From the IMG/VR virus record IMGVR_UViG_2706794662_000004: 46,219 bases of DNA; one strand, given 5' to 3'. Of this stretch, positions 4,372-46,219 are shown piece by piece (within the stretch, counting starts at the first letter, position 1; every line of letters begins with the position of its first letter). The notes beneath the pieces were generated by a model. The model saw only the letters and a list, made by a program, of their open reading frames with translations. It did not search any database and had not been told where the DNA came from. This stretch comes from a virus. Lineage: Duplodnaviria; Heunggongvirae; Uroviricota; Caudoviricetes. Position numbers and translations under genes: made by a program.

Positions 4372-7300
4372 AGAAAGCGCCCTGCTCTTCGTAGCTGCAT
4401 GAGCTATTCCCGGTAATGTATTCTCGTAACCGCCGCAGTTCATTGCTGGACAAGTGATCCATGAACTCTGTGAGGTACAGAGATGCAAACGTCATAGCTA
4501 TGCTGGTTGATGACCATGATGACATAGTGGCCAGCTCCTCACCGGAAAGCGCACTCATCGCCCAGGACTCAGGAACAGCCACCGGCAATACGGCCAAAGC
4601 CTCAGAAATTACTGAATGAGGGGCGTTTTGAACCTGCTCGTTTGTGGATCGCGTTTTATCATCCATATATATATTGAGATCCAAATCGCGATCCATTTCG
4701 ATGGCTGTCTTCTCGGCTTTACGCGTTTTTAGGGTTAGGCCATCTTTCTGACGCTGAACAAGAATATCCAGCATAAATGCCGCTGATTCAGGCTCAACAA
4801 AACGCAAGGTTGGACGCTTATCGCCGTCTCTGCCGCGACGTTTACCTGTTTTAAGGCCAAGAGAGTCGCAAATGTTTTTAAACAACGCTTCCGGCACTTT
4901 AGGCTTCCCTTTTGGCGTCATAAAACCACCAATGTGCAGAACGTTATTCAACAGGTCACGGCGTTCGGCTGTCATGAGATTATCTCGAGCGAATTTGAGA
5001 CGCTCCTGAGTCGCCTCGCCGGTCATAGTCTCAGGGTTGATACCGCAGTCGATAAAGTACTGCCGGAGAGTTGCTGATTTAAGCGCATAGAAACCGCGCG
5101 CCCCGACTTCAACAGTAGGAGTAGCTTTTACCTTGTGATCGATTATTCCAGGGAATTTAGTTTTAAAGACATCATCAGCCTGCTCGCGAGTCATCGCGGT
5201 CACTACAAAATATTGCCACTGTCCCGCCTGACGGTATGCGTAGGTAAAATTGATGGCTGCTTCTTCCCGGTCGTAACGACGAGCTGTTACCTCATCTAAA
5301 AGCATTGTTTCATAGCGGCGAACTTTGTCTCGAGCACCATCGAAATAGAATTTCAGTGTGCCTTCTTCAACCGGTAGTTTCAGTTCGTTTTCAATATCCC
5401 AGCGGACAAGTTTTGCCTGTTCTTCAAGCGTCAGCGCGCGTTTTTTTAGCAGTTCTTCACGCTCTGATTCTTGTGGAGTTTCTGTATTGAGGTGCAGATC
5501 CAGTGTCTGTTCCCACACAATATCCCGCGCTTCTTTACGCAGATCTTTACCGATATCATTCGCAGCATAATCGGTGCCCAGCGGCGATACCTTATAACCG
5601 TCGCTGTGCATGATGCAGATCATGTTGCTGGCGTAGTCGTTACGCGCAGTCGCTTCAATTGCGGCTGCTTTAATTTTCATCCTGGTAAAGTCGGTATTGG
5701 CCACCCCCATTGATATACGGTCGCCATCGAAAATGACATCCGTCAGTTCACCGTTCATACCTGCGGTAGCAAGCAATGCCTGGGCGAATGCTCGTTCTAT
5801 TTTTTGCGGGTCAGTTTCACGTTTTGCACGAGCTTTATCAAAGCCGATAATAAATTCTTTTGCTGTACGGTCGCGGCGTAGCATTTGCACTGCGTCGCTG
5901 GGTACAACTTCACCACAGAACATGCCGAAATGACGGTCAAAATGTTTTTGCTCAATCGACACGCCGGATGAAATAGACGGGCTATAAATCAGGCCGTCGT
6001 ATTTTTTGACCATCTTTTTCGGTTGATTGGTAAATGCTTCAACTTCTGGCTCTGGTTTGTTTTTCTGGTTTACACACAGAAATTTCTTACCAGGAAAATG
6101 CATTCTCAGGGTGGCTGTCACATCTTCTGCAAAGGTGGAGCTGTCGGTGGCCAACATGATTTTTTCGCCATCCGATACAGCTTTCACCACCTCGGTCATG
6201 ATGCGATCTTTTTCTGTATAAAAAACCCGGATTGGCTCACCTGTTTCGCGGTTGCGAACATCAACAGGTAATTCAATTACGTGGATCTGCAGCCATGCCG
6301 GTAAACCTAGTTCTTCACGGCGTTTCATAGCCAGTTCAGCCAGGTCAACCAGCAGATCGTTCGCATCAGCATCCACCATGATTGGGTGTTGTTCCGTTCT
6401 GGCCAGCGCGTCAATTAGCGTATTGAATACAGCCACCGGGTTTTCCATAGCCCGACCGGAAAGAACGGCACGTAGCCCTTGTGTGGCCTCGTCAAAGCCA
6501 AAATAGTCGTGCTGGCGCATCAACGGTTGCCAGCAGTTTTTAACAATCGAGTTTATGCAGATGGTCAGTTTACTGGCGTATGGAGCCATTTCCTGATAGC
6601 CAGGGTCCTGATAGTGCAGGATATCGGCTTTTACACCTTTTCCTTCAGTCATCATTTCCCACAGGCCACCAATAAGGGAAACACGGTGAGCTACAGAGAT
6701 ACCGCGTTCTGAGCTATGCATTAACGGTCGTAACAATCCAGTAGATTTGCCGGAACCCATACCAGCACGAACGATGACGATCCCCTGTAGTGATTGCACG
6801 TACTTCAGGACGTCATCGGTCATTACCGAAGTTTCAAAACGCTTATAGGTGATATGTTGAGGGCGTTTATTGGGATCAGTTATGCGTTCGCTGAAAGAGC
6901 GCGGAGCCTGGGCAATACGGCACTTTTTATTCAGGCGACGGGCAATGTGGTCTTTTACCGTAGCGCGATAGATATTTTCCAGCCCCATTTCACGCAGAAC
7001 GATGCAGAACATGTTAAACAAATCTGACGGACTGTTAGGAACCGGACAGGTTAGCATGCCAATATCCACCGCTCTCAGCAGCTCTTTGGCAAAAGTACGA
7101 CGGTTATCCCGCTTAATTGTCTTCAGGCGGTTGAGCGTCAGAGATAGCAAATCAGTGCCGGTTTTCAGGCGGTTTGCTGTTGCAAATAGTTGACGTGCTG
7201 TTTCACGAAGTCCACGTAGTTTGTGCAGGTCGTTGAAGTCACTGCACTCCATTTGCGGATCGTCTTCAAAAGTTGGATAGACGCAGCGGACATCGTTGAA

Positions 7301-8359
7301 TTTCGATAAGATTTCATAGCCAGTCCGCAGGCCGGTATTCCCTTTTCCTTCTGTGGCTGATTTCCGGTCATTATCCAGTGCGCAGGTGATTTTTGCCGCC
7401 GGGTACATGTTTACCAGTTGTTCCACAACATGAACCATGTTGTTAGCGGATACAGCGACAACCACAGCGTCAAAGCGTTTATCTTTTTTCGTGGCAAGCC
7501 AGATGGATGCACCAGTAGCAAAACCTTCTGTAACAGCGATGTTTTGCGCCCCTTTCAGCTCACCGATAACAAAGCAGGCACCGACGAAATCGCCGCTGGT
7601 TACTGCGCTGGTCTGGTATTTCCCACCTTGTTTGTCGATTCGCTGCCAACCCACAATACGACCATCGTAACGACCGTCCAGGTGAGCCAGAGGGATAGCC
7701 ATATATGTGGTTGGCCCCCGGTTCCATTTCGCACTGTCGTGACTGGTCACGCGACGCACATCACATGAACTAAAAACGTCACGAATACCTTTTTTAATCG
7801 CATATGGCCATGAGCCGTCTTCTGCAGGAGCATGTTCCCACGCGCTGTGGAATGCCAGCCATCCCAGCAAACGTTCATGGTCCATTTGGTTGTTTTTCAG
7901 GTCATTAATTCGTTTTTGTTCTTCACGGCGACGACGTGCTTCGGCCTGACGTTTTATTCTTGCCCGTTCTTCTTCCGGTTGTGCGACCACGGTCGCATTA
8001 TTCCGTTGTTGCTCACGGCGATATTCAGAAAACAGGAAGGAGAAACCGCTCCATGAGCCAGCATCGCTGCCTTTATGGACGAAGTTAATGAACGGGTAAT
8101 CAATCCCTTTGCTGTGTTCCAGCCGAGAGTAAATTTCTACGCGTCCTTTGAGGCTCTTTTCGAGAGCTTCTGGAGATGTTTTATTGTATGAAGAGTAACG
8201 CTCAACACCCCCGCGAGGGTTGAGTTGGATGTTGTCGGAACAGGCAGACCAGTTGATACCAGCCATCTGTGCCAGCTCGGTTAGTTCATCCCGTGCTGCT
8301 TCAATTAGCGAGAACGGATCGCTGCCAAAGCGATCCGCATAGAAATCGTTTAATGTCAT
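4364..8359 (-). CDS. repA: Multifunctional replication protein RepA (primase-helicase, 1331 aa)
   Basis: Size close to N15 RepA (about 1324 aa as I recall); Walker A GMGSGKST in the central helicase part; position upstream of the cB immunity region as in N15. Confidence 0.85.
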   Translation of the reverse strand: MTLNDFYADRFGSDPFSLIEAARDELTELAQMAGINWSACSDNIQLNPRGGVERYSSYNKTSPEALEKSLKGRVEIYSRLEHSKGIDYPFINFVHKGSDAGSWSGFSFLFSEYRREQQRNNATVVAQPEEERARIKRQAEARRRREEQKRINDLKNNQMDHERLLGWLAFHSAWEHAPAEDGSWPYAIKKGIRDVFSSCDVRRVTSHDSAKWNRGPTTYMAIPLAHLDGRYDGRIVGWQRIDKQGGKYQTSAVTSGDFVGACFVIGELKGAQNIAVTEGFATGASIWLATKKDKRFDAVVVAVSANNMVHVVEQLVNMYPAAKITCALDNDRKSATEGKGNTGLRTGYEILSKFNDVRCVYPTFEDDPQMECSDFNDLHKLRGLRETARQLFATANRLKTGTDLLSLTLNRLKTIKRDNRRTFAKELLRAVDIGMLTCPVPNSPSDLFNMFCIVLREMGLENIYRATVKDHIARRLNKKCRIAQAPRSFSERITDPNKRPQHITYKRFETSVMTDDVLKYVQSLQGIVIVRAGMGSGKSTGLLRPLMHSSERGISVAHRVSLIGGLWEMMTEGKGVKADILHYQDPGYQEMAPYASKLTICINSIVKNCWQPLMRQHDYFGFDEATQGLRAVLSGRAMENPVAVFNTLIDALARTEQHPIMVDADANDLLVDLAELAMKRREELGLPAWLQIHVIELPVDVRNRETGEPIRVFYTEKDRIMTEVVKAVSDGEKIMLATDSSTFAEDVTATLRMHFPGKKFLCVNQKNKPEPEVEAFTNQPKKMVKKYDGLIYSPSISSGVSIEQKHFDRHFGMFCGEVVPSDAVQMLRRDRTAKEFIIGFDKARAKRETDPQKIERAFAQALLATAGMNGELTDVIFDGDRISMGVANTDFTRMKIKAAAIEATARNDYASNMICIMHSDGYKVSPLGTDYAANDIGKDLRKEARDIVWEQTLDLHLNTETPQESEREELLKKRALTLEEQAKLVRWDIENELKLPVEEGTLKFYFDGARDKVRRYETMLLDEVTARRYDREEAAINFTYAYRQAGQWQYFVVTAMTREQADDVFKTKFPGIIDHKVKATPTVEVGARGFYALKSATLRQYFIDCGINPETMTGEATQERLKFARDNLMTAERRDLLNNVLHIGGFMTPKGKPKVPEALFKNICDSLGLKTGKRRGRDGDKRPTLRFVEPESAAFMLDILVQRQKDGLTLKTRKAEKTAIEMDRDLDLNIYMDDKTRSTNEQVQNAPHSVISEALAVLPVAVPESWAMSALSGEELATMSSWSSTSIAMTFASLYLTEFMDHLSSNELRRLREYITGNSSCSYEEQGAFYG
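7982..7997. promoter_or_regulatory. 16-bp perfect palindrome TGCGACCACGGTCGCA, candidate SopB centromere site (copy 1, inside repA)
   Basis: Exact palindrome, one of five copies; resembles the F sopC core TGGGACCACGGTCCCA. Confidence 0.5.
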
Positions 8360-8413
8360 TTTTTAGCCATTCCATACGAATTATGTTTTTTCGGGTTGAA
8401 AAAATCCGCAGGA

Positions 8414-8469
8414 GCAGCCACAATAAACGCATCTTGAATTGACGGAATCCGTCGCGTTACTGTGGCTGC
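8414..8469. promoter_or_regulatory. Imperfect 16-17 bp inverted repeat with 23-bp spacer upstream of repA
   Basis: gcagccacaataaacgc ... gcgttactgtggctgc; lies in the repA leader/promoter region. Confidence 0.35.
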
Positions 8470-8482
8470 TTCCTGAAAAGGA

Positions 8483-8510
8483 CCCGAGTTTGCCGACTCG
8501 GGTTTTTTTT
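8483..8510 (+). terminator. Plus-strand intrinsic terminator in the repA-cB intergenic region
   Basis: cccgagtttgccgactcggg hairpin followed by eight T on the plus strand; no plus-strand gene upstream of it. Confidence 0.45.
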
Positions 8511-8604
8511 CGTCTTTTTTCTGCTGCTGTAACCTGAGTCAACCCACAGAACATATGCTCTGCATTAAACCAGATTTACAGCAAACAATAAACCCCGTAT
8601 TAAG

Positions 8605-9201
8605 TCATCTACCCTCAACCATGAATGATTTGATCGTTCCGACTATTTGGTGAACAAATTCAAGATCGCTTTTCCTGAAGATGGCGCGTTGTGAATTTGT
8701 TCCGTCCAGATAGTAATTTTCATCATCAAAACGGGCCAGGCGCTGGATGGTGATATTTCCTGCAGTATCACGAACCAGAACATCCTCGCCGGGGACCAGT
8801 TCCAGCGCAGAATCGACCAGGAGAAAATCGCCAGGCTGATAGTTTCCCTGCGCCAGATTGCTGATAGTTAACGCATAAACAGTATTGCGCTGGCTGATGA
8901 ATGGCAGGAATCGCTCAGTATTTGGAACCTGTCCTGGCTTCCACTCTTCATCAGGTCCACTTTCAGTTGTGCCAATAACAGGAATGCGATCAGGGTCATA
9001 TTCTGTCCCATACAGCACCCAATGCACTGGCTTGCGTAAGCATTTAGCCAGGGCAATACCTATCTCCAGTGACGGCATTACGTCGCCACGTTCTAAGTTT
9101 TGGACGCCTGCAATAGAGATATCGACAGCCTCAGCAACTTCTCGCAACGTCAGCTTCATCTCTAAACGGCGTGCTTTCAGTCGTTCGCCTCGTGTTTTCA
9201 T
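8605..9201 (-). CDS. cB: Prophage repressor CB (HTH plus S24 LexA/CI-like autopeptidase domain)
   Basis: 198-aa ORF with N-terminal HTH (LTLREVAEAVDISIAGVQNLERG) and a C-terminal CI/LexA-like domain; divergent from a cro-like gene across an operator region. Confidence 0.85.
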   Translation of the reverse strand: MKTRGERLKARRLEMKLTLREVAEAVDISIAGVQNLERGDVMPSLEIGIALAKCLRKPVHWVLYGTEYDPDRIPVIGTTESGPDEEWKPGQVPNTERFLPFISQRNTVYALTISNLAQGNYQPGDFLLVDSALELVPGEDVLVRDTAGNITIQRLARFDDENYYLDGTNSQRAIFRKSDLEFVHQIVGTIKSFMVEGR

Positions 9202-9223
9202 AGCTTAATCATAAATGATCTTC

Positions 9224-9264
9224 TTATAGCTGGCTATAAAATTTATTTATTATAGCTGGCTTTA
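9224..9264. promoter_or_regulatory. Operator/promoter region between cB and cro with repeated TTATAGCTGGCT sites
   Basis: ttatagctggctataa (9224-9239, near-palindrome) and ttatagctggcttta (9250-9264) in the divergent intergenic region. Confidence 0.5.
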
Positions 9265-9292
9265 ATTGTTGTTTATTGTTTATAATAACAAC

Positions 9293-9514
9293 ATGAAACC
9301 AGAAGAACTTATTCGCCACTTTGGCAGTGTAGAAAAAGCAGCGGCAGGGGTAGGTGTAACACCCGGAGCTGTTTACCAATGGTTAACCGCTGGAGAGATT
9401 CCTTCATTGCGGCAAAGCGATATTGAAGTTCGTACTGCTTATAAGCTGAAGAGTGACTTTACAACTCGGCGGGTAAAGCAGTCGATTAAGGAGAGTCGTA
9501 AGCGTGGAGCTTGA
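9293..9514 (+). CDS. cro: Cro-like HTH regulator
   Basis: Small ORF divergent from cB with HTH GVTPGAVYQWL; start taken at ATG 9293 (MKPEELIRHF), the track start at 9266 being a TTG. Confidence 0.6.
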   Translation: MKPEELIRHFGSVEKAAAGVGVTPGAVYQWLTAGEIPSLRQSDIEVRTAYKLKSDFTTRRVKQSIKESRKRGA

Positions 9515-10214
9515 GTATATACGCAGCTGCGTCTCTACGGCATTGGCTGATGTTCATTATCGCCAGCGTGGCATTCTGGAGGTCCAGCTTGAGCAGATGC
9601 GTCTCGGTAGATCAGGACGGTTTAACAATAAACCAGTCCGGTCAATCAGTGTGGGGGATGATAACTCATACGAAGTGTCCGTTCCTGCTGAGCCGGTTAG
9701 ATTCCACCAGGGGAAAACATTTAAACAATCATCAATGTTGCTCACTGATATTGATTTTCAGAGCGCCAGCTGGCGCAGGGCTATTGGTCAGTTGAATAAC
9801 GAGGAATCAGCCTGGCTTTATTATTGCTACGGATGCAAGCCTGATTACAACAATGATGTGATTGTTTGTCAGTGGTTATGGCTTGATTTTCTGGTTGCTC
9901 ATTCGGGGGGCGGCTTTAAAAAAATGAAGGCCTCCACGAAAAAAGCCATGCGGAAATTGATTTATTACGCGGCACAGCAGGTTAAATCAGAACTTACGTG
10001 TGCTGAGGCAGTTGATGAGAGAGAACAGGACAGGCATCTGAGTCTTCTACTGAATATATCTATTGATAGCTGGAGACAAGATTATAAAGAACGCTGGCTT
10101 TTAATTAAGTCGCGATGTCTGAGCTTAAATCGAACTGCATTATTAAATGCGGCGGAGAAGCGCAGTGAAATCATCAAACGCCATCGGGCAGGAAGTGCCA
10201 TTCTGCCTTTGTAA
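9504..10214 (+). CDS. Putative late-gene regulator (Q antiterminator position), 236 aa
   Basis: Positional inference only: third gene of the cB-cro-Q arrangement reported for N15 immB; no motif confirmed by eye. Confidence 0.3.
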   Translation: MELEYIRSCVSTALADVHYRQRGILEVQLEQMRLGRSGRFNNKPVRSISVGDDNSYEVSVPAEPVRFHQGKTFKQSSMLLTDIDFQSASWRRAIGQLNNEESAWLYYCYGCKPDYNNDVIVCQWLWLDFLVAHSGGGFKKMKASTKKAMRKLIYYAAQQVKSELTCAEAVDEREQDRHLSLLLNISIDSWRQDYKERWLLIKSRCLSLNRTALLNAAEKRSEIIKRHRAGSAILPL

Positions 10215-10221
10215 ACAAGTT

Positions 10222-10467
10222 ATGTTCAGGAAACCGTCGAAGCCAGAATTAAGGTATTCGGGGGTAAGAAATGAATATGTTATCTGGTGTCCAACTTGTG
10301 GTTACAGGACACGACCAGATAGTAATAAGCAGTCTGTAATTGCCGATTGGTATTTATCAAATCAGCCAGGTAATAAGCATATAGAAAATCTTTGGATTAA
10401 GCGTTACTTGGAAATCAGAGAGGGTGCGACCGTGGTCGCACAAGAAAATGAAAATAACGCCATTTAA
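10222..10467 (+). CDS. Small Cys-containing protein (CPTCGY), unknown function
   Basis: ORF starting at internal ATG 10222 immediately after the previous stop; contains palindrome copy 2 in its 3' end. Confidence 0.35.
   Translation: MFRKPSKPELRYSGVRNEYVIWCPTCGYRTRPDSNKQSVIADWYLSNQPGNKHIENLWIKRYLEIREGATVVAQENENNAI
10425..10440. promoter_or_regulatory. 16-bp palindrome TGCGACCGTGGTCGCA (copy 2)
   Basis: Exact palindrome, same family as 7982, 14806, 17816, 18036. Confidence 0.5.
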
Positions 10468-10477
10468 GCAGGGGCCG

Positions 10478-10651
10478 ATGACGCATGATGAAGCAGAGCG
10501 TCTTTCAGATAATTATCGGCGGCGTGGTAAGAAAGTTCTGGTTGTTCGTTCTGATTTTTTAGGTGATGGATATTGCGTTTATGTTCATTTACCTGAATCA
10601 GAAAGAACGCCAAAACCATCCAGAACATATCAACAGAAAATTTGGGTATAG
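10478..10651 (+). CDS. Hypothetical small protein (57 aa)
   Basis: ORF with ATG at 10478 after a G-rich stretch; upstream in-frame ATGs at 10424 and 10448 overlap the previous gene. Confidence 0.3.
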   Translation: MTHDEAERLSDNYRRRGKKVLVVRSDFLGDGYCVYVHLPESERTPKPSRTYQQKIWV

Positions 10652-10674
10652 ATAAACGTTGAGGAGAATTATTC

Positions 10675-11274
10675 GTGACTAATCAGATTATTTACGACAG
10701 GAAACGGTCTGATGTAATGATTGACCTTGAAACAATGGGTACTAACACATGTGCTCCAATTGTTTCTATCGGGGCAGTGTTTTTTTCTCCAGAAAATGAG
10801 GAATTAGGTCCTACTTTTTATGTGCCAGTGAATCTCAGAAGCTCGATGTTGAATGGTGGTGTCGCCGATGGTGATACCATTTTATGGTGGTTGAAACAGA
10901 GCAAGGAAGCCAGAGCCGCAATTTGTACTAATGATGCCCTTGATATTAAGGATGCACTTTTTGAATTATCACACTTTATTACTTGCCATGCATGTAATTT
11001 AAAAAAATTGAAAGTATGGGGAAATGGAGCAACGTTCGATAATGTAATTTTACGCGGTGCTTATGAGCGCGTTGGCTTAGCCTGTCCGTGGGAATATTTT
11101 AATGATCAGGATGTTCGAACAATCGTTAATCTTGGTCAGTTTATTGGTTTTAATCCTAAAAAAGATATGCCATTTGATGGCGAACGACACAATGCCCTAG
11201 CTGATGCTATTCATCAGGCTAAATATGTATCCGCAATTTTCTCCCGTCTTGTAAAAGGTCAAGGAGAATCGTAA
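10675..11274 (+). CDS. DEDDh-type 3'-5' exonuclease (DnaQ-like)
   Basis: GTG start after GAGGAG RBS; motifs MIDLETMG (Exo I) and HNALADA (Exo III). Confidence 0.7.
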   Translation: MTNQIIYDRKRSDVMIDLETMGTNTCAPIVSIGAVFFSPENEELGPTFYVPVNLRSSMLNGGVADGDTILWWLKQSKEARAAICTNDALDIKDALFELSHFITCHACNLKKLKVWGNGATFDNVILRGAYERVGLACPWEYFNDQDVRTIVNLGQFIGFNPKKDMPFDGERHNALADAIHQAKYVSAIFSRLVKGQGES

Positions 11275-11693
11275 TGGCAAAGGCTTTTACACCAGAACAG
11301 AGGGAAGAACTGAATAAACAAATTGTGGAACTCGTGCGCCTGAATGGACGAGGAACGGTTAGGCAACTTGCGGATGAAACTGGTATTAGCCGATGTGCTG
11401 TTAGTCGTTTATCAAGAGAGCTTGCTGCCAGTGGTGATTTGTATATCTCTGGCTCCGGGATATTTCTGTCTGCACAAGCACGCAAGGACTGGCAAAACGC
11501 CCGTAAAAAACTATCAAGAGTAAAGCCGAAGACATCGGTAGTGGTTGATCCAGACCTTATCTGGTCATTACCTGACGGAGAAATACGTCGTTACGACAGG
11601 CGCTTGAACATGATTTGTCACGATTGCCGGAAAAGTGAAGTTATGCAGCGTGTGCTGGCTTTTTATCAGGGAAATTTTCAGGAGGTGGCGTAG
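11274..11693 (+). CDS. HTH-containing protein, putative regulator
   Basis: 139-aa ORF with HTH-like TVRQLADETGISRCAVSRLSRELA; ATGA-coupled to the exonuclease gene. Confidence 0.5.
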   Translation: MAKAFTPEQREELNKQIVELVRLNGRGTVRQLADETGISRCAVSRLSRELAASGDLYISGSGIFLSAQARKDWQNARKKLSRVKPKTSVVVDPDLIWSLPDGEIRRYDRRLNMICHDCRKSEVMQRVLAFYQGNFQEVA

Positions 11694-11983
11694 TGAATAT
11701 CGACACCACGATAACGATCGATACGGCCCTAAATACCGGTCTGGCACTTCTCGGTTGGCTTTACATCATGTCCCGTGCATGGCGATGGCTTGGTTCCATT
11801 TTTCTAAAACAGTGGAAAAAACGGCGCAAACAGGAGAGACGCCAGAAAGCGTTAGAGGCGTTCTATGACGCATTTGAACTTAGCCGCATTGAGCCTGGAA
11901 CAACAGCCAGGATAGCGACAAAAGGTGACCTGATGATAGTGATGTTCCGACAGGAGAGAGCAGAGAAAGGAGAATCAGCATGA
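11693..11983 (+). CDS. Small membrane protein (96 aa)
   Basis: GTG start overlapping the previous stop; hydrophobic segment LNTGLALLGWLYIM followed by a basic stretch. Confidence 0.45.
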   Translation: MNIDTTITIDTALNTGLALLGWLYIMSRAWRWLGSIFLKQWKKRRKQERRQKALEAFYDAFELSRIEPGTTARIATKGDLMIVMFRQERAEKGESA

Positions 11984-12639
11984 AATTTTCCAAATTTTCT
12001 GAGTTGGTGAATCGCATTTTGTCCAACAACCATAGCCATCATCGCGATATGGATGTAACGATCGTTGTTCATTCGCCTGGTCGCATCGGTTCAACACCAT
12101 CAGTTGAGGTTCAGTCAATTCAGGCGGGTTTTGATTGGGATTCCGGGAAAGTGCTTATTTTCCCAGCACAGCCACTGACCACGCTAACACCAGAACAGAT
12201 TACTGATATTACTGATAGTGTGCGCAAAGGTCAGTCTTGGCACGCATATCAGGAATATAAAAAGCATAAAGAGCAGTTGGAAAAATTGTCGATTGAACTG
12301 GATGCTGCAAAACAGCGCGTAGCAGAACTGGAAGCCAAACCTGTAAGCCAAACTTACAAGTTAACTTTTGAGCAATGGCTGGAACAGCAGCATGACAAAA
12401 TTGATGTTGATTGTGGATGTGTAAGTACTGAAATGTTTATGCACTGGATAAGGGTCGCGTATGAGGCTGGCAACTCTCCGGTAACTCCGGATGGTCATGT
12501 TCAGTTTTCTGTTTCACTTCCTGCAGCGTTTGGTGGAGATAAATATTTTATTGATGGTGTATTTCAACCTTTGAGATATGAGCGTGACTGTGAAAAAGCG
12601 GTTGTGGCCGCTGGCGGTGTAGTTAATTGGGTTAAGTAA
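11980..12639 (+). CDS. Hypothetical protein (219 aa)
   Basis: ORF coupled to the upstream gene; no recognisable motif. Confidence 0.55.
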   Translation: MKFSKFSELVNRILSNNHSHHRDMDVTIVVHSPGRIGSTPSVEVQSIQAGFDWDSGKVLIFPAQPLTTLTPEQITDITDSVRKGQSWHAYQEYKKHKEQLEKLSIELDAAKQRVAELEAKPVSQTYKLTFEQWLEQQHDKIDVDCGCVSTEMFMHWIRVAYEAGNSPVTPDGHVQFSVSLPAAFGGDKYFIDGVFQPLRYERDCEKAVVAAGGVVNWVK

Positions 12640-12654
12640 TTTTCAGGAGGATTT

Positions 12655-12981
12655 ATGGCGCTGACACCGGCAGAACGGCAAAGGAGACGCAGGGAACGGT
12701 TGAAGAAGGAAGGCACATCAAGACGGGACTGGATTTTGGAGCCTGACGAGTTACGTATGTTGGGGGAAATTTGTGTATTGCGTAGACCAGGGCGAGTTCC
12801 ATATTCGGAGAACGAAGTCATTGGTTTGCTGATCAGGAAAAACTATAAGGAGCTGCAGAAGCAGCTATCTACTACTTGCCCGCGATGTGGTCAAAAAATG
12901 CCTGTTTCAGAATGCATTTTTGATGGCGAAGGGTCATGCCACCTTACAACCACGAGGCTGAAACTTGCGCTCAAAGCGTGA
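12655..12981 (+). CDS. Hypothetical protein with basic N-terminus and CxxC ... C ... C motif (108 aa)
   Basis: ORF with AGGAGG RBS; Arg-rich N-terminus; CPRCGQ ... SECIFDGEGSCH. Confidence 0.5.
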   Translation: MALTPAERQRRRRERLKKEGTSRRDWILEPDELRMLGEICVLRRPGRVPYSENEVIGLLIRKNYKELQKQLSTTCPRCGQKMPVSECIFDGEGSCHLTTTRLKLALKA

Positions 12982-12999
12982 CTGGTCACGGAGGGATAA

Positions 13000-13242
13000 A
13001 TGGATAAAAAGGCATTGCTTTTTGAAATGATACGAAAACGGAGCGAAAAGAGCTTTTCTGATGGTGGTGATGGGTTTGTTTTCGCTTCTATGCTTGCTTT
13101 TGATGTTGGGTTAAATAGCAGAATTGTTAAAAGGATGCTTGATTCTGCTGTCCGTGATGGGCTTTTGGAAGTGGTTGGGCGAGGAGTAGGAAGGGAACAT
13201 AAGTATCGGACTACAAAGATATTTAACCAGTTAATCTATTGA
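13000..13242 (+). CDS. Hypothetical protein (80 aa)
   Basis: ORF with GGAGGG RBS. Confidence 0.5.
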   Translation: MDKKALLFEMIRKRSEKSFSDGGDGFVFASMLAFDVGLNSRIVKRMLDSAVRDGLLEVVGRGVGREHKYRTTKIFNQLIY

Positions 13243-13243
13243 A

Positions 13244-13286
13244 AGTTGGCTATAAAATTTGAGTTTTACCCTGTAATTTTATACAG
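13244..13286. promoter_or_regulatory. CB-operator-like site (gttggctataaaattt) plus LexA box CTGT-N8-ACAG (13271-13286) upstream of a small gene
   Basis: tggctataaaattt matches the cB/cro operator repeat at 9231-9244; ccCTGTaattttatACAGta matches the LexA consensus TACTGT-N8-ACAGTA at 17/20. Confidence 0.55.
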
Positions 13287-13310
13287 TATCAAATAACCTT
13301 TTTTAATTAA

Positions 13311-13529
13311 ATGGTATTAGATTCAATGACTGAAGCACCTGTATCAACTCTTGAAGAACTCGGATCAAACCTAAAAGACATCGACGCCGTTTTGGATCTG
13401 GTTAGCGTTGCTCTGGCTTCTCCAGAAGCCAGCTTGCATCTTGGCGAGATTTCACGACTTGTTAGTATGTCGCGGGAGATTGCTCAGAATTGCCAACAAG
13501 TTATTGCTGTTGAGTGTTTACATCATTGA
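13311..13529 (+). CDS. Small acidic protein (72 aa), candidate SOS-inducible antirepressor (AntC-like by position)
   Basis: First ORF downstream of the LexA box and operator-like site; no recognisable domain; start uncertain (ATG 13311 or 13326). Confidence 0.35.
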   Translation: MVLDSMTEAPVSTLEELGSNLKDIDAVLDLVSVALASPEASLHLGEISRLVSMSREIAQNCQQVIAVECLHH

Positions 13530-13572
13530 TATACACCCCGCCCTTCTGGACGGGGTAGCGAAAAGGGTCTAA

Positions 13573-13860
13573 TCAATAGACGGCATTAATATTAATCGTT
13601 GCACCGCATGCTTGGGCATATTTTGATAAAGTTTTCATGCTTGCCCCTAAAGGATTGCTTTCCAGGCGGCTGATAGCTGACGGGCGCAATCCCATTCGTT
13701 CAGCCAGAGCTGACTTCGTTAAACCTGCTCTTTCCCTCATTTCGTATAACATTTCGACCATCTCCAGCTCTTTATCGGCCTCTTCATATCCTTTGATGGC
13801 TTCTGGAGTGTTGAGAAGTTTTTCTTTTACTTCGTTAAACGGGATGCCTTTCGCTTTCAT
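13573..13860 (-). CDS. HTH (XRE-family) antitoxin, HigA-like
   Basis: 95-aa ORF with HTH (LTKSALAERMGLRPSAISRLE) directly downstream of and overlapping a RelE/HigB-like toxin ORF. Confidence 0.65.
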   Translation of the reverse strand: MKAKGIPFNEVKEKLLNTPEAIKGYEEADKELEMVEMLYEMRERAGLTKSALAERMGLRPSAISRLESNPLGASMKTLSKYAQACGATININAVY

Positions 13861-14171
13861 CAGTTCATCTCCTTCAGGCGAGTTCTGGCGATTTCGATAG
13901 CCTTCACCGGTGTTTTCTGTGTCTTTTTTACAAATGCATGCAATAGATAAATTTCGTTACCAGTCGCGTAGGCGTACAGCGTTCTTGCGATGTTTTTATC
14001 CCCTACTCGTAGTTCAAAAAGCCCTCCACCTATTACACGGCTATGGGGCATCTTCAGTTTGTTGCCTTCTTTCTCCAGTCGCTCAATTAATCTGGTCATG
14101 CGACCTCGCAAATCATCTGGTAGTTCAAGCAGTTCATCCAGTGCTGCAGGGTGGGTTATCACGTTAAACAT
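13860..14171 (-). CDS. RelE/ParE-superfamily toxin (HigB/Gp49-like)
   Basis: 103-aa ORF; toxin-first gene order with overlapping start/stop to the HTH antitoxin; sequence resembles the phage Gp49/HigB-like family as I recall it. Confidence 0.6.
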   Translation of the reverse strand: MFNVITHPAALDELLELPDDLRGRMTRLIERLEKEGNKLKMPHSRVIGGGLFELRVGDKNIARTLYAYATGNEIYLLHAFVKKTQKTPVKAIEIARTRLKEMN

Positions 14172-14229
14172 ATTATAGCCTCCATATCCATAAAATACAC
14201 CAAAACAAGAAAACAGCGCAAATTAAAAA

Positions 14230-14247
14230 TTTCACTAAAAAGTGAAA
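14230..14247. promoter_or_regulatory. Perfect inverted repeat tttcactaaaaagtgaaa in the toxin-antitoxin promoter region (candidate autoregulatory operator)
   Basis: 7-bp arms with 4-bp spacer about 60 bp upstream of the toxin start. Confidence 0.4.
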
Positions 14248-14336
14248 AATAACACTGGATGTGTTCGTTTGGCAGAGTTACAGTTCGTGTCATTGAGGGG
14301 CAATAACCAACTAACTATATGAATTTGGAGGATATT

Positions 14337-14558
14337 ATGAATTATCAAGGTAACGAAAAAATGCGCGACGACGTTGCGGAGATAGCTAACGAACTGTATG
14401 AGTTGTGGAAGAAGGTTGAACGTTTCGAAAAGGAATATGGTTTCAACAGTACCAACCTAGCAGACCGACTGGCTGGTCGCTTAGTTGGGACTATGGGGCC
14501 AAAACTGGCTGAGTTGAACCGCTTTATGGCTGATGTTGATTTCCAGTTTCAAGATTGA
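14337..14558 (+). CDS. Hypothetical protein (73 aa)
   Basis: ORF with GGAGG RBS before ATG 14337 (track start 14319 is upstream of the RBS). Confidence 0.45.
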   Translation: MNYQGNEKMRDDVAEIANELYELWKKVERFEKEYGFNSTNLADRLAGRLVGTMGPKLAELNRFMADVDFQFQD

Positions 14559-14571
14559 TTAGAGAGGCGTT

Positions 14572-14799
14572 ATGAATATTAATGAAATTCGTGGAAATAT
14601 GACTGAAGCGGCCCTGAGTGTGGAATGTGTTATGCGTGGATACCCACGCATTTCCCTGAAAGAGTTAAGCGAAGCCTGTTTTTTGAGTCAAGCTGCCGTT
14701 GAATTTATCATCGAACAGATGATCTGTTTTGGGGTTGCAAAGCGTAGCGGGTCTGGTCGATATTCTTTGACCGATGAATATAAGCAGGCAACTTTCTAA
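14572..14799 (+). CDS. Hypothetical protein (75 aa)
   Basis: ORF with AGAGAGG RBS. Confidence 0.45.
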   Translation: MNINEIRGNMTEAALSVECVMRGYPRISLKELSEACFLSQAAVEFIIEQMICFGVAKRSGSGRYSLTDEYKQATF

Positions 14800-14805
14800 A
14801 AACTG

Positions 14806-14821
14806 TGCGACCACGGTCGCA
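14806..14821. promoter_or_regulatory. 16-bp palindrome TGCGACCACGGTCGCA (copy 3)
   Basis: Exact palindrome in the intergenic region upstream of the methyltransferase gene. Confidence 0.5.
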
Positions 14822-14907
14822 CAGCACAAAAACGAAAAAGCTTGGCAAAATGACGGTTTTTAGTTATTGTTTTGTTAAGTTGGGTTTTTTGTACCCAACA
14901 GCCAACA

Positions 14908-14931
14908 AGCCGCCTTTATGGCGGTTTTTTT
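14908..14931 (+). terminator. Intrinsic terminator (preceded by a second hairpin at about 14879-14899)
   Basis: ccgcc-tttat-ggcgg hairpin followed by seven T. Confidence 0.5.
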
Positions 14932-15066
14932 GTGCCTGAAAAGTGGGCGCAGGACAAGTTGCAGCTTGTCCTGCGGTCAACCCATGCCAGAGCTATAGGC
15001 TGAACCTAAAGCCCACCCGCGATGCGCATCGCCGGGTTAGCTTACCCAGGCAAAAAAATAATAGCT

Positions 15067-16143
15067 ATGTTCAAAACCACTAATATTCATGGCGCACAAC
15101 TCGTTTGCGCAGATTCTCTGCAATTTATCAAAACCATCCCTGATAACTCGGTCAATTTGATTGCAACAGACCCACCATACTTCGGCGTAAAGGCTAACGC
15201 ATGGGATAACCAGTGGGATAGCGATGCTGACTTTTTGGGGTGGATTGACGAATTTTTGGCAGAATTTTGGCGGATATTGGCCCCTAATGGCAGCCTGTAT
15301 ATGTTTACCGGCTCTCGCCTTGCGTCAAAAATTGAATTATTAACTCGCGACCGTTTCAATGTTCTGAACCATATTATTTGGGCTAAACCCAGTGGTATGT
15401 GGCGCGGTTGTCATAAAGAAAGTTTAAGGGCTTATTTTCCTGCTACTGAAAGAATATTATTTGCAGAGCATTACGGCGCGTCAGGTTATGCTAAAGGTCA
15501 GTCAGGTTATGCTTCAAAATGTGCAGATTTAAGAAAAAATATTTTTTCTCCACTAATTGATGCTTTTTCGCTGGCTCGCCGTCAGTTAGATATATCAGCC
15601 GCAGACATTAATTCAGCGACAGGAAAGCAGATGTGTTCACACTGGTTTTCTTATTCGCAGTGGCGGCTTCCATCATTAATTGATTTTAATAAACTATGCG
15701 AATTATTTCGCAGGAAGGCAGATTCACTCGGTGTCCCGTGTCCATATCCTTTTAATGTTGATTATTCAGAACATGAAAAGCGTTATAGCGATCTGAAATT
15801 GCATTATGAGGAAGTAAAGAAGCAGTATGATGATTTGAAGGCTCAGTATGAAAATTTACGCCGTCCATTTCATGTTACTGCTGATGTACCTTATACCGAT
15901 GTATGGGAGTTTCCTCCTGTGCAATATTATCCTGGCAAGCACCCATGTGAAAAACCTGCAGCGATGATGGAACATATTATAAAGAGTAGTTCACGCCCCG
16001 GAGATATCGTTGCCGATTTCTTTATGGGATCAGGCTCAACTATTAAAGCTGCGCTGAAGTTAGGACGTCAGGCAATAGGTATTGAGATTGAGGGCGAACG
16101 TTATCTTCAGACAGTTGATGAAGTGAAAAAGTTATTTGAGTAA
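15067..16143 (+). CDS. DNA N6-adenine/N4-cytosine methyltransferase (DPPY family)
   Basis: Motif IV IATDPPYF near the N-terminus and motif I FFMGSGST near the C-terminus (beta-class order); start taken at ATG 15067 (MFKTTN...). Confidence 0.75.
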   Translation: MFKTTNIHGAQLVCADSLQFIKTIPDNSVNLIATDPPYFGVKANAWDNQWDSDADFLGWIDEFLAEFWRILAPNGSLYMFTGSRLASKIELLTRDRFNVLNHIIWAKPSGMWRGCHKESLRAYFPATERILFAEHYGASGYAKGQSGYASKCADLRKNIFSPLIDAFSLARRQLDISAADINSATGKQMCSHWFSYSQWRLPSLIDFNKLCELFRRKADSLGVPCPYPFNVDYSEHEKRYSDLKLHYEEVKKQYDDLKAQYENLRRPFHVTADVPYTDVWEFPPVQYYPGKHPCEKPAAMMEHIIKSSSRPGDIVADFFMGSGSTIKAALKLGRQAIGIEIEGERYLQTVDEVKKLFE

Positions 16144-16238
16144 CTGGAGAATATATTCCCCTGCCGTTTTTGGTAGGGGTTATTTTCGCCATATAGTTTC
16201 CAAGCCGAAACCTCAGCAACTATTGCGAGGTAAGAGAT

Positions 16239-16511
16239 ATGAAGATGGATGAACGATACAGCAGTGCATCTTATGGTAGCGCTGGTCTTGCTGCGTTCTT
16301 TGCCAGCCTGTCATTGCAGGATTGGGGCTTCATTATCGGTGTCGCGTTCAGCATTATCCTCGGTGTGCTTACATACCGGCTCAATAAACGCGAGCAGATG
16401 AAGCGCACGAAGATATTGCAGGACATATTGGATAAAACTAATACCAATAATCTTTCTGCTACAGCGATGGTTATTGGAGAGCTGGGGAAGAGAGCACCGA
16501 AGGAAATATGA
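16239..16511 (+). CDS. Holin (two predicted TM helices)
   Basis: 90-aa ORF with hydrophobic segments [12 protein letters not shown] and [15 protein letters not shown]; its stop overlaps the endolysin start. Confidence 0.5.
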
Positions 16512-17008
16512 TGCAGTCATCATTACGCAAAGCTGTCACAGCTGCTATTGGTGGCGGGGCTATTGCCATAGCGTCTATGCTCATCACTGGCCCAAGTGGT
16601 AACGATGGTCTGGAAGGTGTCAGTTACATACCATACAAAGATATTGTTGGCGTATGGACTGTATGTTACGGACACACTGGAAAAGACATCATGCTAGGTA
16701 AAACGTATACCGAAGCAGAATGCAAAGCTCTCCTGAATAAAGACCTTGCCACTGTCGCCAGACAAATTAACCCGTACATCAAAGTCGATATACCGGAAAC
16801 AACGCGCGGCGCTCTTTACTCGTTCGTTTACAACGTGGGCGCTGGTAATTTCAGAACATCGACGCTTCTTCGCAAAATAAACCAGGGCGATATCAAAGGC
16901 GCATGTGATCAGCTACGTCGCTGGATATCTGCTGGCGGTAAGCAATGGAAAGGCCTGATGACTCGTCGTGAGATTGAGCGTGAAGTCTGTTTGTGGGGTC
17001 AACAATGA
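16508..17008 (+). CDS. SAR endolysin (T4-type lysozyme with N-terminal signal-anchor-release domain)
   Basis: Gly/Ala-rich N-terminal TM ([20 protein letters not shown]) followed by lysozyme catalytic region EG...D...[10 protein letters not shown]. Confidence 0.8.
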
Positions 17009-17442
17009 GCAGGGTAACCGCGATTATCTCCGCTCTGGTTATTTGCATCATCGTCTGCCTGTCGTGGGCTGTTAATCATTACCGTGATAACGCCATCGCC
17101 TACAAAGAGCAGCGCGATAAAGCCACATCCACAATCGCTGATATGCAGAAGCGTCAACGTGACGTAGCAGAACTCGATGCCAGATATACAAAGGAGCTTG
17201 CTGATGCTAACGCGACTATCGAAAGCCTCCGTGCTGATGTTTCTGCTGGGCGTAAGCGCCTGCAAGTCGCCGCCACCTGTGCAAAGTCAACGACCGGAGC
17301 CAGCGGCATGGGCAATGGAGAAAGCCCAAGACTTACAGCAGATGCTGAACTCAATTATTACCGTCTCCGAAGTGGGATCGACAGGATAACTGCGCAGGTT
17401 AACTACTTGCAGGAATACATCAAGACGCAATGCCTGAATTAA
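17005..17442 (+). CDS. Rz: i-spanin Rz
   Basis: N-terminal TM then coiled-coil; sequence very close to lambda Rz as I recall it; start overlaps the endolysin stop (ATGA). Confidence 0.75.
17204..17389 (+). CDS. Rz1: o-spanin Rz1 (lipoprotein) embedded in the +1 frame of Rz
   Basis: Signal peptide with lipobox (FLLGVSAC) followed by a Pro-rich mature region, entirely inside Rz. Confidence 0.6.
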
Positions 17443-17483
17443 TCCCTCTGTATCAAAAACGAGCTCAATTTGTTGGATAGTGA

Positions 17484-17795
17484 ATGAAAATTTATATTGC
17501 CGGGCCAATGACGGGATATGAGAACTTTAATCGTGACGCCTTTAATAAAGAGGCAGATCGTTTGTCACGACATGGTCACTCTGTCTTGAATCCAGCCACT
17601 TTGCCTAATGGTCTGACACAACGTGAATACATGGATATTTGCTTTGCAATGCTTCGTTGTGCTGATGCTATTTTGATGCTTCCTGGCTGGAAAGCGTCTG
17701 CTGGAGCAACTGCTGAGTATCATTACGCATACAAGATGGAGATGCCGGTATTCACTACGCTGAATTACCCGCCAGCTTGTTCCTCTGTAGCATAA
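17484..17795 (+). CDS. Nucleoside 2-deoxyribosyltransferase-like / DUF4406-like protein
   Basis: 103-aa ORF starting MKIYIAGPMTG, which resembles that family as I recall it. Confidence 0.45.
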   Translation: MKIYIAGPMTGYENFNRDAFNKEADRLSRHGHSVLNPATLPNGLTQREYMDICFAMLRCADAILMLPGWKASAGATAEYHYAYKMEMPVFTTLNYPPACSSVA

Positions 17796-17815
17796 AAATC
17801 TCTTTGTTTCTCGTT

Positions 17816-17831
17816 TGCGACCGTGGTCGCA
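17816..17831. promoter_or_regulatory. 16-bp palindrome TGCGACCGTGGTCGCA (copy 4), immediately left of repeat element copy A
   Basis: Exact palindrome. Confidence 0.5.
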
Positions 17832-17842
17832 CATTAAATACC

Positions 17843-18015
17843 GCGCTGCATCGTCGCCGTATTTCCGCATTAACCATGACCGTAGCCCGACGGGGAACTC
17901 CTCTGCGCGAGTGTGCGGAAATAATCAAAAACGATGCACACCGGGTTTTTACCGCGCTAATGATTCGCGGGTTTGTCCCTCATGCTCGCCAGTCCTGTGC
18001 GAGGGTGGAAGAAAC
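17843..18015. repeat. Noncoding repeat element, copy A (about 173 bp, about 90 percent identical to copy B)
   Basis: Aligns base-for-base with 19628-19801; contains conserved stems (ccgtagcccgacgg; accgcg-loop-cgcggg with variable loop; ccctcatgctcgc...gcgaggg). Confidence 0.6.
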
Positions 18016-18035
18016 AGGGCATGTATTCAGGAGCG

Positions 18036-18051
18036 TGCGACCGTGGTCGCA
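18036..18051. promoter_or_regulatory. 16-bp palindrome TGCGACCGTGGTCGCA (copy 5), immediately right of repeat element copy A
   Basis: Exact palindrome, 25 bp upstream of the RBS of the 286-aa cargo gene. Confidence 0.5.
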
Positions 18052-18075
18052 CGGTATCTTTGTCAGGAGGTTTTG

Positions 18076-18936: not shown

Positions 18937-19061
18937 CCAGTTTTGTTTTGCAGAACATCCTCAACTAAAAGCTTATAGAAAGAGAGCCTGAGATATTTTT
19001 TCTGTCTCTCGTAGTTGTTTGTTTTTTTTTCGAACAGACTTACAACTTACAGGATATAAAC

Positions 19062-19627: not shown

Positions 19628-19801
19628 GCGCTGTATCGTCGTCGTATTCCCGTCTTAACAGAGACCGTAGCCCGACGGGGAACTCTTTCTGCGCGAGTGT
19701 GCGGGAATAATCAAAAACGATGCACACCGGGTTTTTACCGCGTTTATGGTTCGCGGGTTTGCCCCTCATGCTCGCCAGTCCTGTGCGAGGGTGGAAGAAA
19801 C
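19628..19801. repeat. Noncoding repeat element, copy B, immediately upstream of cos
   Basis: Aligns with 17843-18015; the 68-aa track ORF at 19697-19903 lies inside it but conservation is at nucleotide level. Confidence 0.6.
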
Positions 19802-19869
19802 CGGATATTAATGCAAGTGATAAACATTCTCATTTTCTCGGGTCCTTTCCGGCGATCTGACAGGCTACG

Positions 19870-46218: not shown

Positions 46219-46219
46219 T

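Follow-up and report, generated by a model that had tools for sequence, protein, structure and literature searches.

Five copies of one inverted repeat, spread over 8–18 kb of a 46,219-nucleotide stretch of DNA (the window), are very probably scattered centromere sites, similar to parS, that serve an N15-type SopABC partition system; judging from the sequence, we put the probability at about 0.93. The window represents an N15-like E. coli linear plasmid-prophage and is approximately 97% identical to PhiR46_1. The repeats carry the N15 arm sequence and, as in N15, are dispersed away from sopAB, four of them at N15 positions; the SopB and SopA genes are adjacent, at 43.6–45.7 kb. The sites, the gene that holds the first of them and the partition genes are as follows.

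7982–7997, unstranded: site 1, an exact match inside repA, where it codes for A-T-V-V-A of RepA; N15 IR1 orthologue
4364–8359, minus strand: repA, the replication gene holding site 1, from the open reading frame list; homologous to N15 gene 37
10425–10440, unstranded: site 2, N15 IR2 orthologue, at the 3' end of a Lar-like ORF (10147–10467) and downstream of Q (9504–10214)
14806–14821, unstranded: site 3, N15 IR3 orthologue, 21 nt upstream of the late-promoter -35
17816–17831, unstranded: site 4, 21 nt past the stop of a DUF4406 gene (17484–17795); positional equivalent of N15 IR4 and phiKO2 site 4
18036–18051, unstranded: site 5, an extra copy whose end lies 24 nt upstream of the ATG of the gene at 18076–18936
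43588–44553, minus strand: sopB, a ParB-family centromere-binding protein by homology, with the recognition helix AEAENIDRNIITRCIN
44553–45719, minus strand: sopA, a partition ATPase by homology, adjacent to sopB

In the mechanism we propose, SopB dimers would recognise the 7-bp arms of each 16–18-bp inverted repeat via a helix-turn-helix and nucleate partition complexes on the sites. The SopA ATPase would then position and segregate the complexes, which would secure inheritance of the low-copy linear plasmid-prophage.

A single repeat with invariant arms

The motif TGCGACC(AC/GT)GGTCGCA occurs exactly five times in the whole window, and none of 100 dinucleotide-preserving shuffles of the window contained any match to the 16-mer, which bears out the claim that five exact copies lie beyond chance. 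When up to three mismatches are allowed, nine matches are found against 2.4 expected. The four additional matches are poor and within chance; the excess is thus made up of the five exact copies, and the family has five members. The 'AC' and 'GT' forms represent one 16-mer read from opposite strands. The repeat had been described as a perfect 16-bp palindrome. The five copies are indeed identical, but the 2-bp centre is asymmetric and only the 7-bp arms that flank it are inverted. At 10425, 14806 and 18036 the symmetry reaches 18 bp (GTGCGACCNNGGTCGCAC), and at the other two sites the extension is one-sided. The placement given in the original prediction is also correct: no copy lies near sopAB, one lies inside repA, and two bracket the repeat element upstream of the cargo genes.

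The same palindrome turned up in related linear plasmid-prophages, where a search had been proposed. In an unbiased count, GCGACC-NN-GGTCGC is the most repeated palindrome of N15, phiKO2, Klebsiella phage 48ST307, Enterobacter phage MStein-2023a, PhiR46_1 and the window, and also of the Vibrio phage Valp1. Comparing four orthologous positions in four divergent phages gave a pairwise identity of 99.1% for the arms, 61% for the flanks (20 nt on each side) and 56% for the central dinucleotide. Judged by these identities, the arms are under strong purifying selection.

This pattern of constraint bears on the idea that the palindromes are RNA hairpins or intrinsic terminators. Each site, if transcribed, can fold into a GC-rich hairpin of 6–9 bp; site 5 is flagged by a terminator scan; and the N15 annotation describes the stem-loop at 45560–45584, which covers IR4, as a putative rho-independent terminator. 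However, the 14 arm bases are invariant in sequence rather than just in pairing, the centre equivalent to the loop varies, and there are no compensatory changes within the N15-type group. The sole arm change in the enterobacterial phages, GGGACC in PY54, accompanies an F-like SopB recognition helix. None of the five sites is followed by a proper U-tract, and only site 5 passes the lenient scan. Site 1 is located within the essential repA ORF, and real terminators nearby, such as that at 14907–14927, look quite different. A hairpin or terminator role is therefore highly improbable.

It is more improbable still that the motif serves a different DNA-binding activity, for example restriction-modification, a methyltransferase or another phage regulator. 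The window does code for a DNA methyltransferase (15022–16143, N6_N4_Mtase), and the motif is palindromic like many such targets. Nevertheless, with 14 specified bases it greatly exceeds Type II or methylase targets in length, it persists among phages with differing methylase complements, and the same sequence is the N15 SopB site used experimentally (PMC7205306). A separate conserved palindrome family, CGTGACYRGTCACG, is a likelier operator of another regulator.

SopB, SopA and the known partition systems

The centromere reading is supported by the partition proteins. Identity to the N15 counterparts is 73% for SopB and 93% for SopA. SopB matches the F SopB structures 3MKY, 3MKW and 3MKZ, has a Pfam SoPB_HTH match and scores 406.6 bits against PRK13698 of NCBIfam (cutoff 274), while SopA scores 734.3 bits against the NCBIfam SopA equivalog (cutoff 725). 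The DNA-specificity segment of SopB corresponds to N15 residues 179–200 (PMC2910045). In this segment 18 of the 22 residues are as in N15, but the D-R-N signature within it is no proven determinant, given Vibrio Valp1. The recognition helix carries D-R-N in all five enterobacterial phages of the GCGACC type and S-R-K in F and PY54, which are of the GGGACC type, yet Valp1 combines an S-R-K helix with GCGACC sites, so specificity is not readable from those residues alone. The helix reads ENIDRNIIT in the window, EGIDRNIVN in N15, ENISRKIIT in F and GVSRKAMM in Valp1.

In N15, Sop partition with the dispersed sites IR1–IR4 is described in Ravin & Lane 1999 and Grigoriev & Lobocka 2001. It is in N15 only that SopB binding to the IR sites and their partition function, including stabilisation of a plasmid by one site when SopAB is supplied, have been shown, and the N15 sites are established as centromeres. 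The published IR1–IR4 oligonucleotides have the sequence GTGCGACCNNGGTCGCAC; assembled into a 4xIR array, they give rise to N15 SopB foci (PMC7205306). The N15 genome has the same arms at 33480, 35931, 41125 and 45562. The arms TGCGACC/GGTCGCA and the 18-bp extension are identical in the window, so the motif is no new specificity variant. Together with the N15-type SopB and SopA, this agrees with the earlier suggestion of an N15-style scattered SopB centromere. Four sites are syntenic, one within repA, one past Q, one ahead of the late promoter and one behind the lysis/DUF4406 module, and by position and sequence sites 1–4 are orthologous to IR1–IR4. In both genomes sopBA lies next to a telomere and far from the sites, and SopB has the D-R-N signature in its recognition helix. 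We infer that the window's SopB binds the repeats and that all five are functional.

The two genomes also differ. N15 has four sites and the window five. The centre is TC in IR2 and AT in IR3, whereas all five centres in the window are AC/GT; IR1 has one arm mismatch (AGCGACC), and site 1 has none. A cytosine-methylase gene lies between DUF4406 and IR4 in N15 but not in the window, and the N15 SopB helix has G, V-N and M where that of the window has N, I-T and I.

In phiKO2 (NC_005857.1) each of the four N15 positions is occupied by a GTGCGACCACGGTCGCA(C/T) sequence, annotated 'putative plasmid partitioning site'; one of them, like site 4, comes directly after a DUF4406-like gene. phiKO2 differs from the window in lacking a fifth site and in having different virion genes. 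Its relative Klebsiella 48ST307 has 6–7 sites, two of which form a tandem pair at the late promoter.

F shares the protein families (SopB HTH and SopA), the 7-bp arms, the 2-bp centre and the preference for an AC centre. Unlike the window, F has G in place of C at position 4/4' (TGGGACC), an S-R-K helix and a sopC of 10 tandem copies by sopB. Position 4/4' is the only difference between N15 and F sites and amounts to one symmetric position in each half-site (PMC2910045), in agreement with the two symmetric differences from sopC noted in the original prediction. We found no sopC-like tandem array near sopB or anywhere else in the window; in particular, tandem repeats that each carry TGGGACCNNGGTCCCA and adjoin sopB are absent. 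F-type sites are also absent from the window, where matches with up to two mismatches return the five N15-type sites only.

PY54 is a telomere phage with dispersed palindromes at the four canonical positions and the same late-promoter spacing. Its arms, however, are of the F type (GGGACC), with 8 perfect and 3 degenerate copies, and its SpyB (of the SpyAB system) is only 55% identical and has the S-R-K helix.

Fixed positions and a possible control of neighbouring genes

The positions of the sites are conserved in detail. Site 1 has the same codon position and frame as the repA sites of N15, phiKO2 and 48ST307; the repA gene is annotated as a primase in PhiR46_1. At the same repA codons PY54 has an F-type palindrome, which changes the protein from ATVVA to GTTVP. 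Site 2 has flanks that can be aligned with those of N15 IR2 and of the phiKO2 site annotated at 40345–40362, and the PY54 counterpart (34394) lies at the 3' end of its Lar-like ORF44. The PY54 site at 44409 directly follows its DUF4406 gene, as site 4 does. Thus the four canonical positions outlast the switch in site specificity between the N15-type phages and PY54, even with RepA residues altered. Site 3 stands beside the following element.

14842–14927, plus strand: late promoter-like element and terminator, from a consensus scan and alignment to the annotated N15 and phiKO2 late promoters and terminators

The element consists of a -35 TTGGCA (14842–14847), a -10 TATTGT (14865–14870) and a downstream terminator at 14907–14927, and it looks like a Q-antitermination unit. 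The distance from site to annotated -35 is 22 nt in N15; phiKO2, 48ST307 and PY54 share the arrangement, and the spacing of approximately 21 nt is kept in all five phages compared. The kept positions and this fixed spacing give in-silico support to a position-dependent role of SopB beyond partition, probably a regulatory one.

The sites might even be chiefly regulatory operators, at which SopB or its complex controls transcription or replication at fixed positions, with any one site able to serve partition. We consider this unlikely. From N15 to PY54 the same four positions are kept despite the changed specificity, and partition alone needs no fixed positions. The late-promoter spacing just described points the same way, as does the 24 nt between the end of site 5 and a start codon. 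The proposed effect of SopB binding on the expression of neighbouring genes already has a precedent in N15: a published N15 study reportedly ties Sop to late gene expression. On the other hand, the synteny is explicable by common descent and selection against site loss, relatives differ widely in site number (4 to 8 or more) and in extra positions, and the N15 sites are established as centromeres. The operator and centromere explanations overlap and do not exclude each other. Under the centromere reading, SopB at the position-locked sites would probably modulate local transcription or replication as a secondary effect. Candidate spots are the repA interior, the neighbourhood of the late promoter and the DNA just upstream of the cargo genes.

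Sites 4 and 5 around a lambdoid repeat

Site 5 is absent from N15 and phiKO2. Sites 4 and 5, which are 220 bp apart, are kept together in PhiR46_1, in two E. coli plasmids (L015 and L016) and in four IMG/VR stretches, and related E. coli plasmids keep the pattern of five sites. The pair and the adjoining genes are arranged around a direct repeat.

17843–18018, plus strand: direct repeat copy A, between sites 4 and 5; the repeat is 177 bp of lambdoid pre-cos DNA
18076–19511, plus strand: two genes (the 'cargo cassette') between site 5 and copy B, 18076–18936 (phrog_2571) and 19062–19511 (phrog_3054)
19628–19804, plus strand: direct repeat copy B, at the native lambdoid position just before cos, beyond the two cargo genes

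Copies A and B are 91% identical, and more than 400 lambdoid phage records contain DNA homologous to copy A immediately upstream of cos. The PHROGs that the two cargo genes match are of unknown function, and a Pfam search of both genes gave no match.

Site 5 is an added copy and probably came about in a rearrangement that took in lambdoid pre-cos DNA. Sites 4 and 5 could instead be mainly recombination joints or passengers, the 18-bp repeat being microhomology at module boundaries and site 5 a by-product of rearrangement under no selection for a function of its own. The homology to lambdoid phages starts just after site 4 and stops just before site 5, and the same module is found in integrated lambdoid prophages. 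One of these prophages retains an intact site 5 but a decayed site 4, which reads TGCGATCGTGGTCGCT, and the lambdoid phage 2B8 bears a mutated relic at the equivalent spot. In the integrated lambdoid prophage L012 both sites are intact (100% identical), and the 40 kb examined there contain neither repA nor sop; the presence of the sites alone is thus no proof of current SopB use, and site 5, at a mosaic joint, could be a passenger. Against this, site 5 matches the 18-bp consensus perfectly and is retained in all the plasmid members examined, and from its sequence it should bind SopB like any other site. This alternative bears on the origin of site 5 and does not argue against SopB binding. We regard it as decidedly unlikely that sites 4 and 5 are mainly joints.

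A further scheme, which seems quite doubtful, joins these observations into a position-locked dual use of SopB in partition-complex assembly and gene control, with an insulator or silencer at sites 4 and 5 and cross-talk with prophages. The pair of sites around the lambdoid repeat, bound by SopB, could insulate or silence the moron cassette. Through the same site-bearing module in integrated lambdoid prophages, a resident N15-like plasmid could regulate chromosomal prophages, or be titrated by them, by way of centromere-based cross-talk or incompatibility.

With the dispersed-centromere reading, a known system is rediscovered with one extra site, and the accepted mechanism is unchanged. The natural SopB variants of the window, N15, F and Valp1 narrow the candidate specificity residues. 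For work on ParB specificity, the positions kept through the specificity switch and the fixed late-promoter spacing may be of interest. The chief value of the finding lies in annotation. The SopB sites carry no annotation in PhiR46_1, the closest public record, and for this clade of E. coli telomere phage-plasmids they can confidently be called SopB centromere sites.

Organization of the element and its inverted repeats

The window represents an N15-like linear plasmid-prophage from E. coli, read in prophage orientation. Identity is ~97% with Escherichia phage PhiR46_1 and YDC107_1; with N15 and phiKO2 it is ~75% across repA and the immunity region. The genes run in the order telomere, protelomerase, repA, cB/cro/Q, early genes, late promoter, methylase, lysis genes, DUF4406 gene, two function-unassigned genes, cos, lambda-like virion genes, sopB, sopA and second telomere.

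Features of the window
246-2159: protelomerase
2813-2899, minus strand: C4 antisense RNA (Rfam gathering-score hit)
2925-2998, minus strand: isrK Hfq-binding RNA (Rfam gathering-score hit)
4364-8359, minus strand: repA
7982-7997: site 1
8605-10214: cB/cro/Q
10425-10440: site 2
14806-14821: site 3
17484-17795: DUF4406 gene
17816-17831: site 4
17843-18018: copy A of a 177-bp direct repeat, between sites 4 and 5
18036-18051: site 5
19628-19804: copy B of the direct repeat, directly before cos, 91% identical to copy A
43323-43521, plus strand: IS009 (Rfam gathering-score hit)
43588-44553, minus strand: sopB
44553-45719, minus strand: sopA

The C4 and isrK hits fit an N15-type anti-repressor (immunity) locus. 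A complete telomere palindrome is present at both window ends (1-105, centre near 52/53; 46115-46219, centre near 46172). The sequence runs ~50 nt past each hairpin telomere, so the actual ends of the prophage are internal to the window. AT-rich imperfect tandem repeats with periods of 13 and 19 occupy 45999-46147, between the sopA upstream region and the right telomere.

The pattern TGCGACCRYGGTCGCA has exactly five exact matches in the window, starting at 7982, 10425, 14806, 17816 and 18036. No match at all occurred in any of 100 dinucleotide-preserving shuffles, which bears out the original prediction that five copies are far above chance. Tolerating three mismatches added only four poor matches, about the chance level, and we therefore regard the family as having five members. 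Searches of the window for further degenerate sites (the sopAB vicinity included) gave none above chance, and those for F-type sites and for a tandem array gave none. In each motif, two inverted arms of 7 bp enclose an asymmetric 2-bp centre; whether this appears as AC or GT depends on the strand read, the sequence being one and the same. At three of the five sites the symmetry reaches 18 bp, GTGCGACCNNGGTCGCAC.

Identity with the N15 centromere sites

A search of the N15 genome (NC_001901) revealed the same arms at four positions.

Sites in N15
33480: inside repA
35931: after Q
41125: 22 nt ahead of the annotated -35 of the late promoter
45562: between genes 58 and 59

The published N15 IR1-IR4 oligonucleotides are every one GTGCGACCNNGGTCGCAC, and a 4xIR array gave normal foci of N15 SopB but no normal foci of a hybrid SopB that has the DNA-binding domain of the F protein (PMC7205306). 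The phiKO2 GenBank record annotates the same sequence as four 'putative plasmid partitioning sites'. These identical arms support the proposal of a dispersed, N15-style SopB centromere. The earlier comparison of the motif with the F site was also correct, and the apparent variant is plain N15 specificity: the sole difference between N15 and F SopB sites is at position 4/4' of each half-site (PMC2910045). We considered a new SopB specificity variant between F and N15 and rejected it, because N15's own sites share the arms.

The partition proteins are closely related to those of N15, with 73% identity for SopB and 93% for SopA. Window SopB has matches to Pfam SoPB_HTH, to NCBIfam PRK13698 and to the DNA-binding domain of F SopB, whose structure is solved (3MKY); window SopA scores above the SopA equivalog cutoff. 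The specificity determinants of N15 SopB lie within residues 179-200, where the residues flanking Arg190 probably read position 4 (PMC2910045). In agreement with that remark, the recognition helix carries D-R-N in all five enterobacterial phages with GCGACC sites (window helix, AEAENIDRNIITRCIN) and S-R-K in F and PY54, both with GGGACC sites. A two-residue code, with D-R-N for C4 and S-R-K for G4, fits seven enterobacterial proteins but is broken by the Vibrio telomere myophage Valp1, whose SopB homologue (~48% identical) has the F-like S-R-K helix beside GCGACC sites. We thus claim no specificity code.

Window sopB is mosaic. Its N-terminal ~130 aa are identical to PhiR46_1 SopB, and the C-terminal part has diverged, the HTH included (ENIDRNIIT versus EGVDRNIIS), giving 82-84% identity overall although the genomes are ~97% identical.

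The type Ia ParABS/SopABC system is an established model, which we take to apply here. SopB dimers would bind each inverted repeat via the HTH, bound SopB would seed the assembly of larger partition complexes, and these the SopA ATPase would segregate. For N15 IR1-4, SopB binding and partition function have been established by experiment (PMC7205306 and cited references). For the window, we infer both, since the sites are identical, their positions are conserved and SopB and SopA are close relatives of the N15 proteins. Judged from these sequence comparisons, the five repeats are very probably SopB-binding centromere sites (probability about 0.93).

Conservation of the sites and competing readings

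We counted all 6+6 palindromes with 0-4-bp spacers, genome by genome. GCGACC-NN-GGTCGC is the top-repeated palindrome in the window (5), PhiR46_1 (5), N15 (4), phiKO2 (4), Klebsiella 48ST307 (6-7), Enterobacter MStein-2023a (4), two more E. coli plasmids of the clade (5 each) and Valp1 (4). The Valp1 copies are dispersed TGCGACCNNGGTCGCA sites with N15-type arms.

Sites in Valp1
74: TGCGACCNNGGTCGCA
8051: TGCGACCNNGGTCGCA
26768: TGCGACCNNGGTCGCA
35896: TGCGACCNNGGTCGCA

In contrast, PY54 has F-type GGGACC-NN-GGTCCC in place of the N15-type motif, with eight perfect and three degenerate sites. The YDC107_1 record (CP025712.1) was left out of the counts because it looks like an inverted-duplication assembly through a telomere and lacks sopAB; it displays an apparent telomere read-through, with the telN-repA arm duplicated in inverted form. 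A motif scan of IMG/VR matched at least 120 stretches. Among the matches listed, G...C flanks and AC/GT centres dominate far beyond random expectation. Distances of 2443/2440 bp between sites 1 and 2, and of 220 bp between sites 4 and 5, turn up repeatedly, showing that many of these stretches are kin of the window element.

Aeromonas phage phiARM81ld carries at least 12 dispersed copies of TGGGGCCAGTGGCCCCA, for example at 2510, 7034, 35272 and 43291, mostly directly past gene ends. These could be another dispersed ParB site or bidirectional terminators.

By comparing the four orthologous sites of the window, N15, phiKO2 and 48ST307, we obtained a pairwise identity of 99.1% for the 14 arm bases, against 61% for the ±20-nt flanks and 56% for the central dinucleotide. 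By this measure of conservation, the site arms are under selection. Site 1 occupies the same repA codons and frame in all four genomes, encoding A-T-V-V-A. In PY54 repA, an F-type palindrome stands at these codons and the protein reads G-T-T-V-P, which indicates that the DNA palindrome is kept there rather than the RepA sequence. In the window as in PY54, site 2 is located past Q, in the 3'-terminal part of a Lar-like ORF. Site 3 lies ~21 nt upstream of the conserved late-promoter -35 in the window, N15, phiKO2, 48ST307 and PY54, as a tandem pair in 48ST307 and with F-type arms in PY54. Site 4 is found past the DUF4406 gene (window, phiKO2, PY54).

Sites so fixed in position could plausibly affect replication or late transcription nearby. 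The precedent from N15 is a 2008 paper that, in its title, describes the Sop system as facilitating the expression of late genes. A mainly regulatory role of the sites overlaps with the centromere reading, and the two are inseparable in silico. The sites might instead act as terminators or RNA elements, since hairpins can form at them and site 5 passes a lenient terminator scan. This reading fails: the scan flags site 5 only, a U-tract follows none of the five sites, Rfam returned no hit at any site, and conservation of the arms extends to their sequence, beyond mere pairing. A restriction, methylation or other-operator motif is unlikely as well, given 14 specific bases that persist in phages with differing methylase sets. 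For another regulator, a separate conserved palindrome family, CGTGACYRGTCACG, is the better operator candidate.

Copies of the second palindrome, CGTGAC(CA/TG)GTCACG
3058-3071: upstream of the isrK/C4-like RNA region, minus strand
7738-7751: inside repA, ~245 bp from site 1
12977-12990: 3' end of a gp46-like gene (12655-12981)

Three syntenic copies of CGTGAC(CA/TG)GTCACG are also found in N15, phiKO2, 48ST307 and MStein-2023a, and the family is absent from PY54 and Valp1. It is probably the operator of another regulator.

The fifth site and its module

Past the lysis/DUF4406 module there is one site in N15 and phiKO2 but a pair in the window, spaced at 220 bp. The original description of this pair around a repeat upstream of cargo genes is anatomically accurate, and copies A and B are now located; they enclose site 5 and two genes (phrog_2571, phrog_3054). 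The repeat segment is ordinary lambdoid pre-cos DNA, present in more than 400 lambdoid phage records. Lambdoid homology begins directly past site 4 and ends directly ahead of site 5, which places the sites at mosaic joints. We rejected the identification of the site-5 cassette with the TelA/ImmA toxin cassette of Klebsiella telomere phages (PMC12042878), which lies between repA and telN.

The module (DUF4406, site 4, copy A, site 5 and the genes) also occurs in integrated lambdoid prophages of E. coli chromosomes; at full length, 25 of the 5426 complete E. coli genomes have it, counting plasmids and chromosomes together. Just two chromosomal prophages were compared for decay of the sites where SopB is missing. 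In NZ_CP083701.1 (20337-20572) the module is 100% identical with both sites intact, and this identity leaves it uninformative on decay. In NZ_CP011416.1 (20337-20573) it is 97% identical, with site 5 intact and site 4 changed by two asymmetric mutations to TGCGATCGTGGTCGCT. The integrase-encoding lambdoid phage 2B8 (NC_049952.1) lacks a SopB homologue. It carries a single palindrome TGCAACCGTGGTTGCA at 48655-48670, ~90 bp before cos and in the place of window site 5, with one symmetric pair of changes from the N15-type site.

Directly past site 5, at 18052-18071, a predicted RNA segment AUCUUU can pair with the GGAGGU Shine-Dalgarno of gene 18076. In this folding model, the pairing may occlude the ribosome-binding site of the gene.

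Site 5 is a perfect consensus and is conserved in every plasmid member examined; from its sequence, it should bind SopB. The partition system itself is already known; with one site more, the window joins the N15-type family as a new member.
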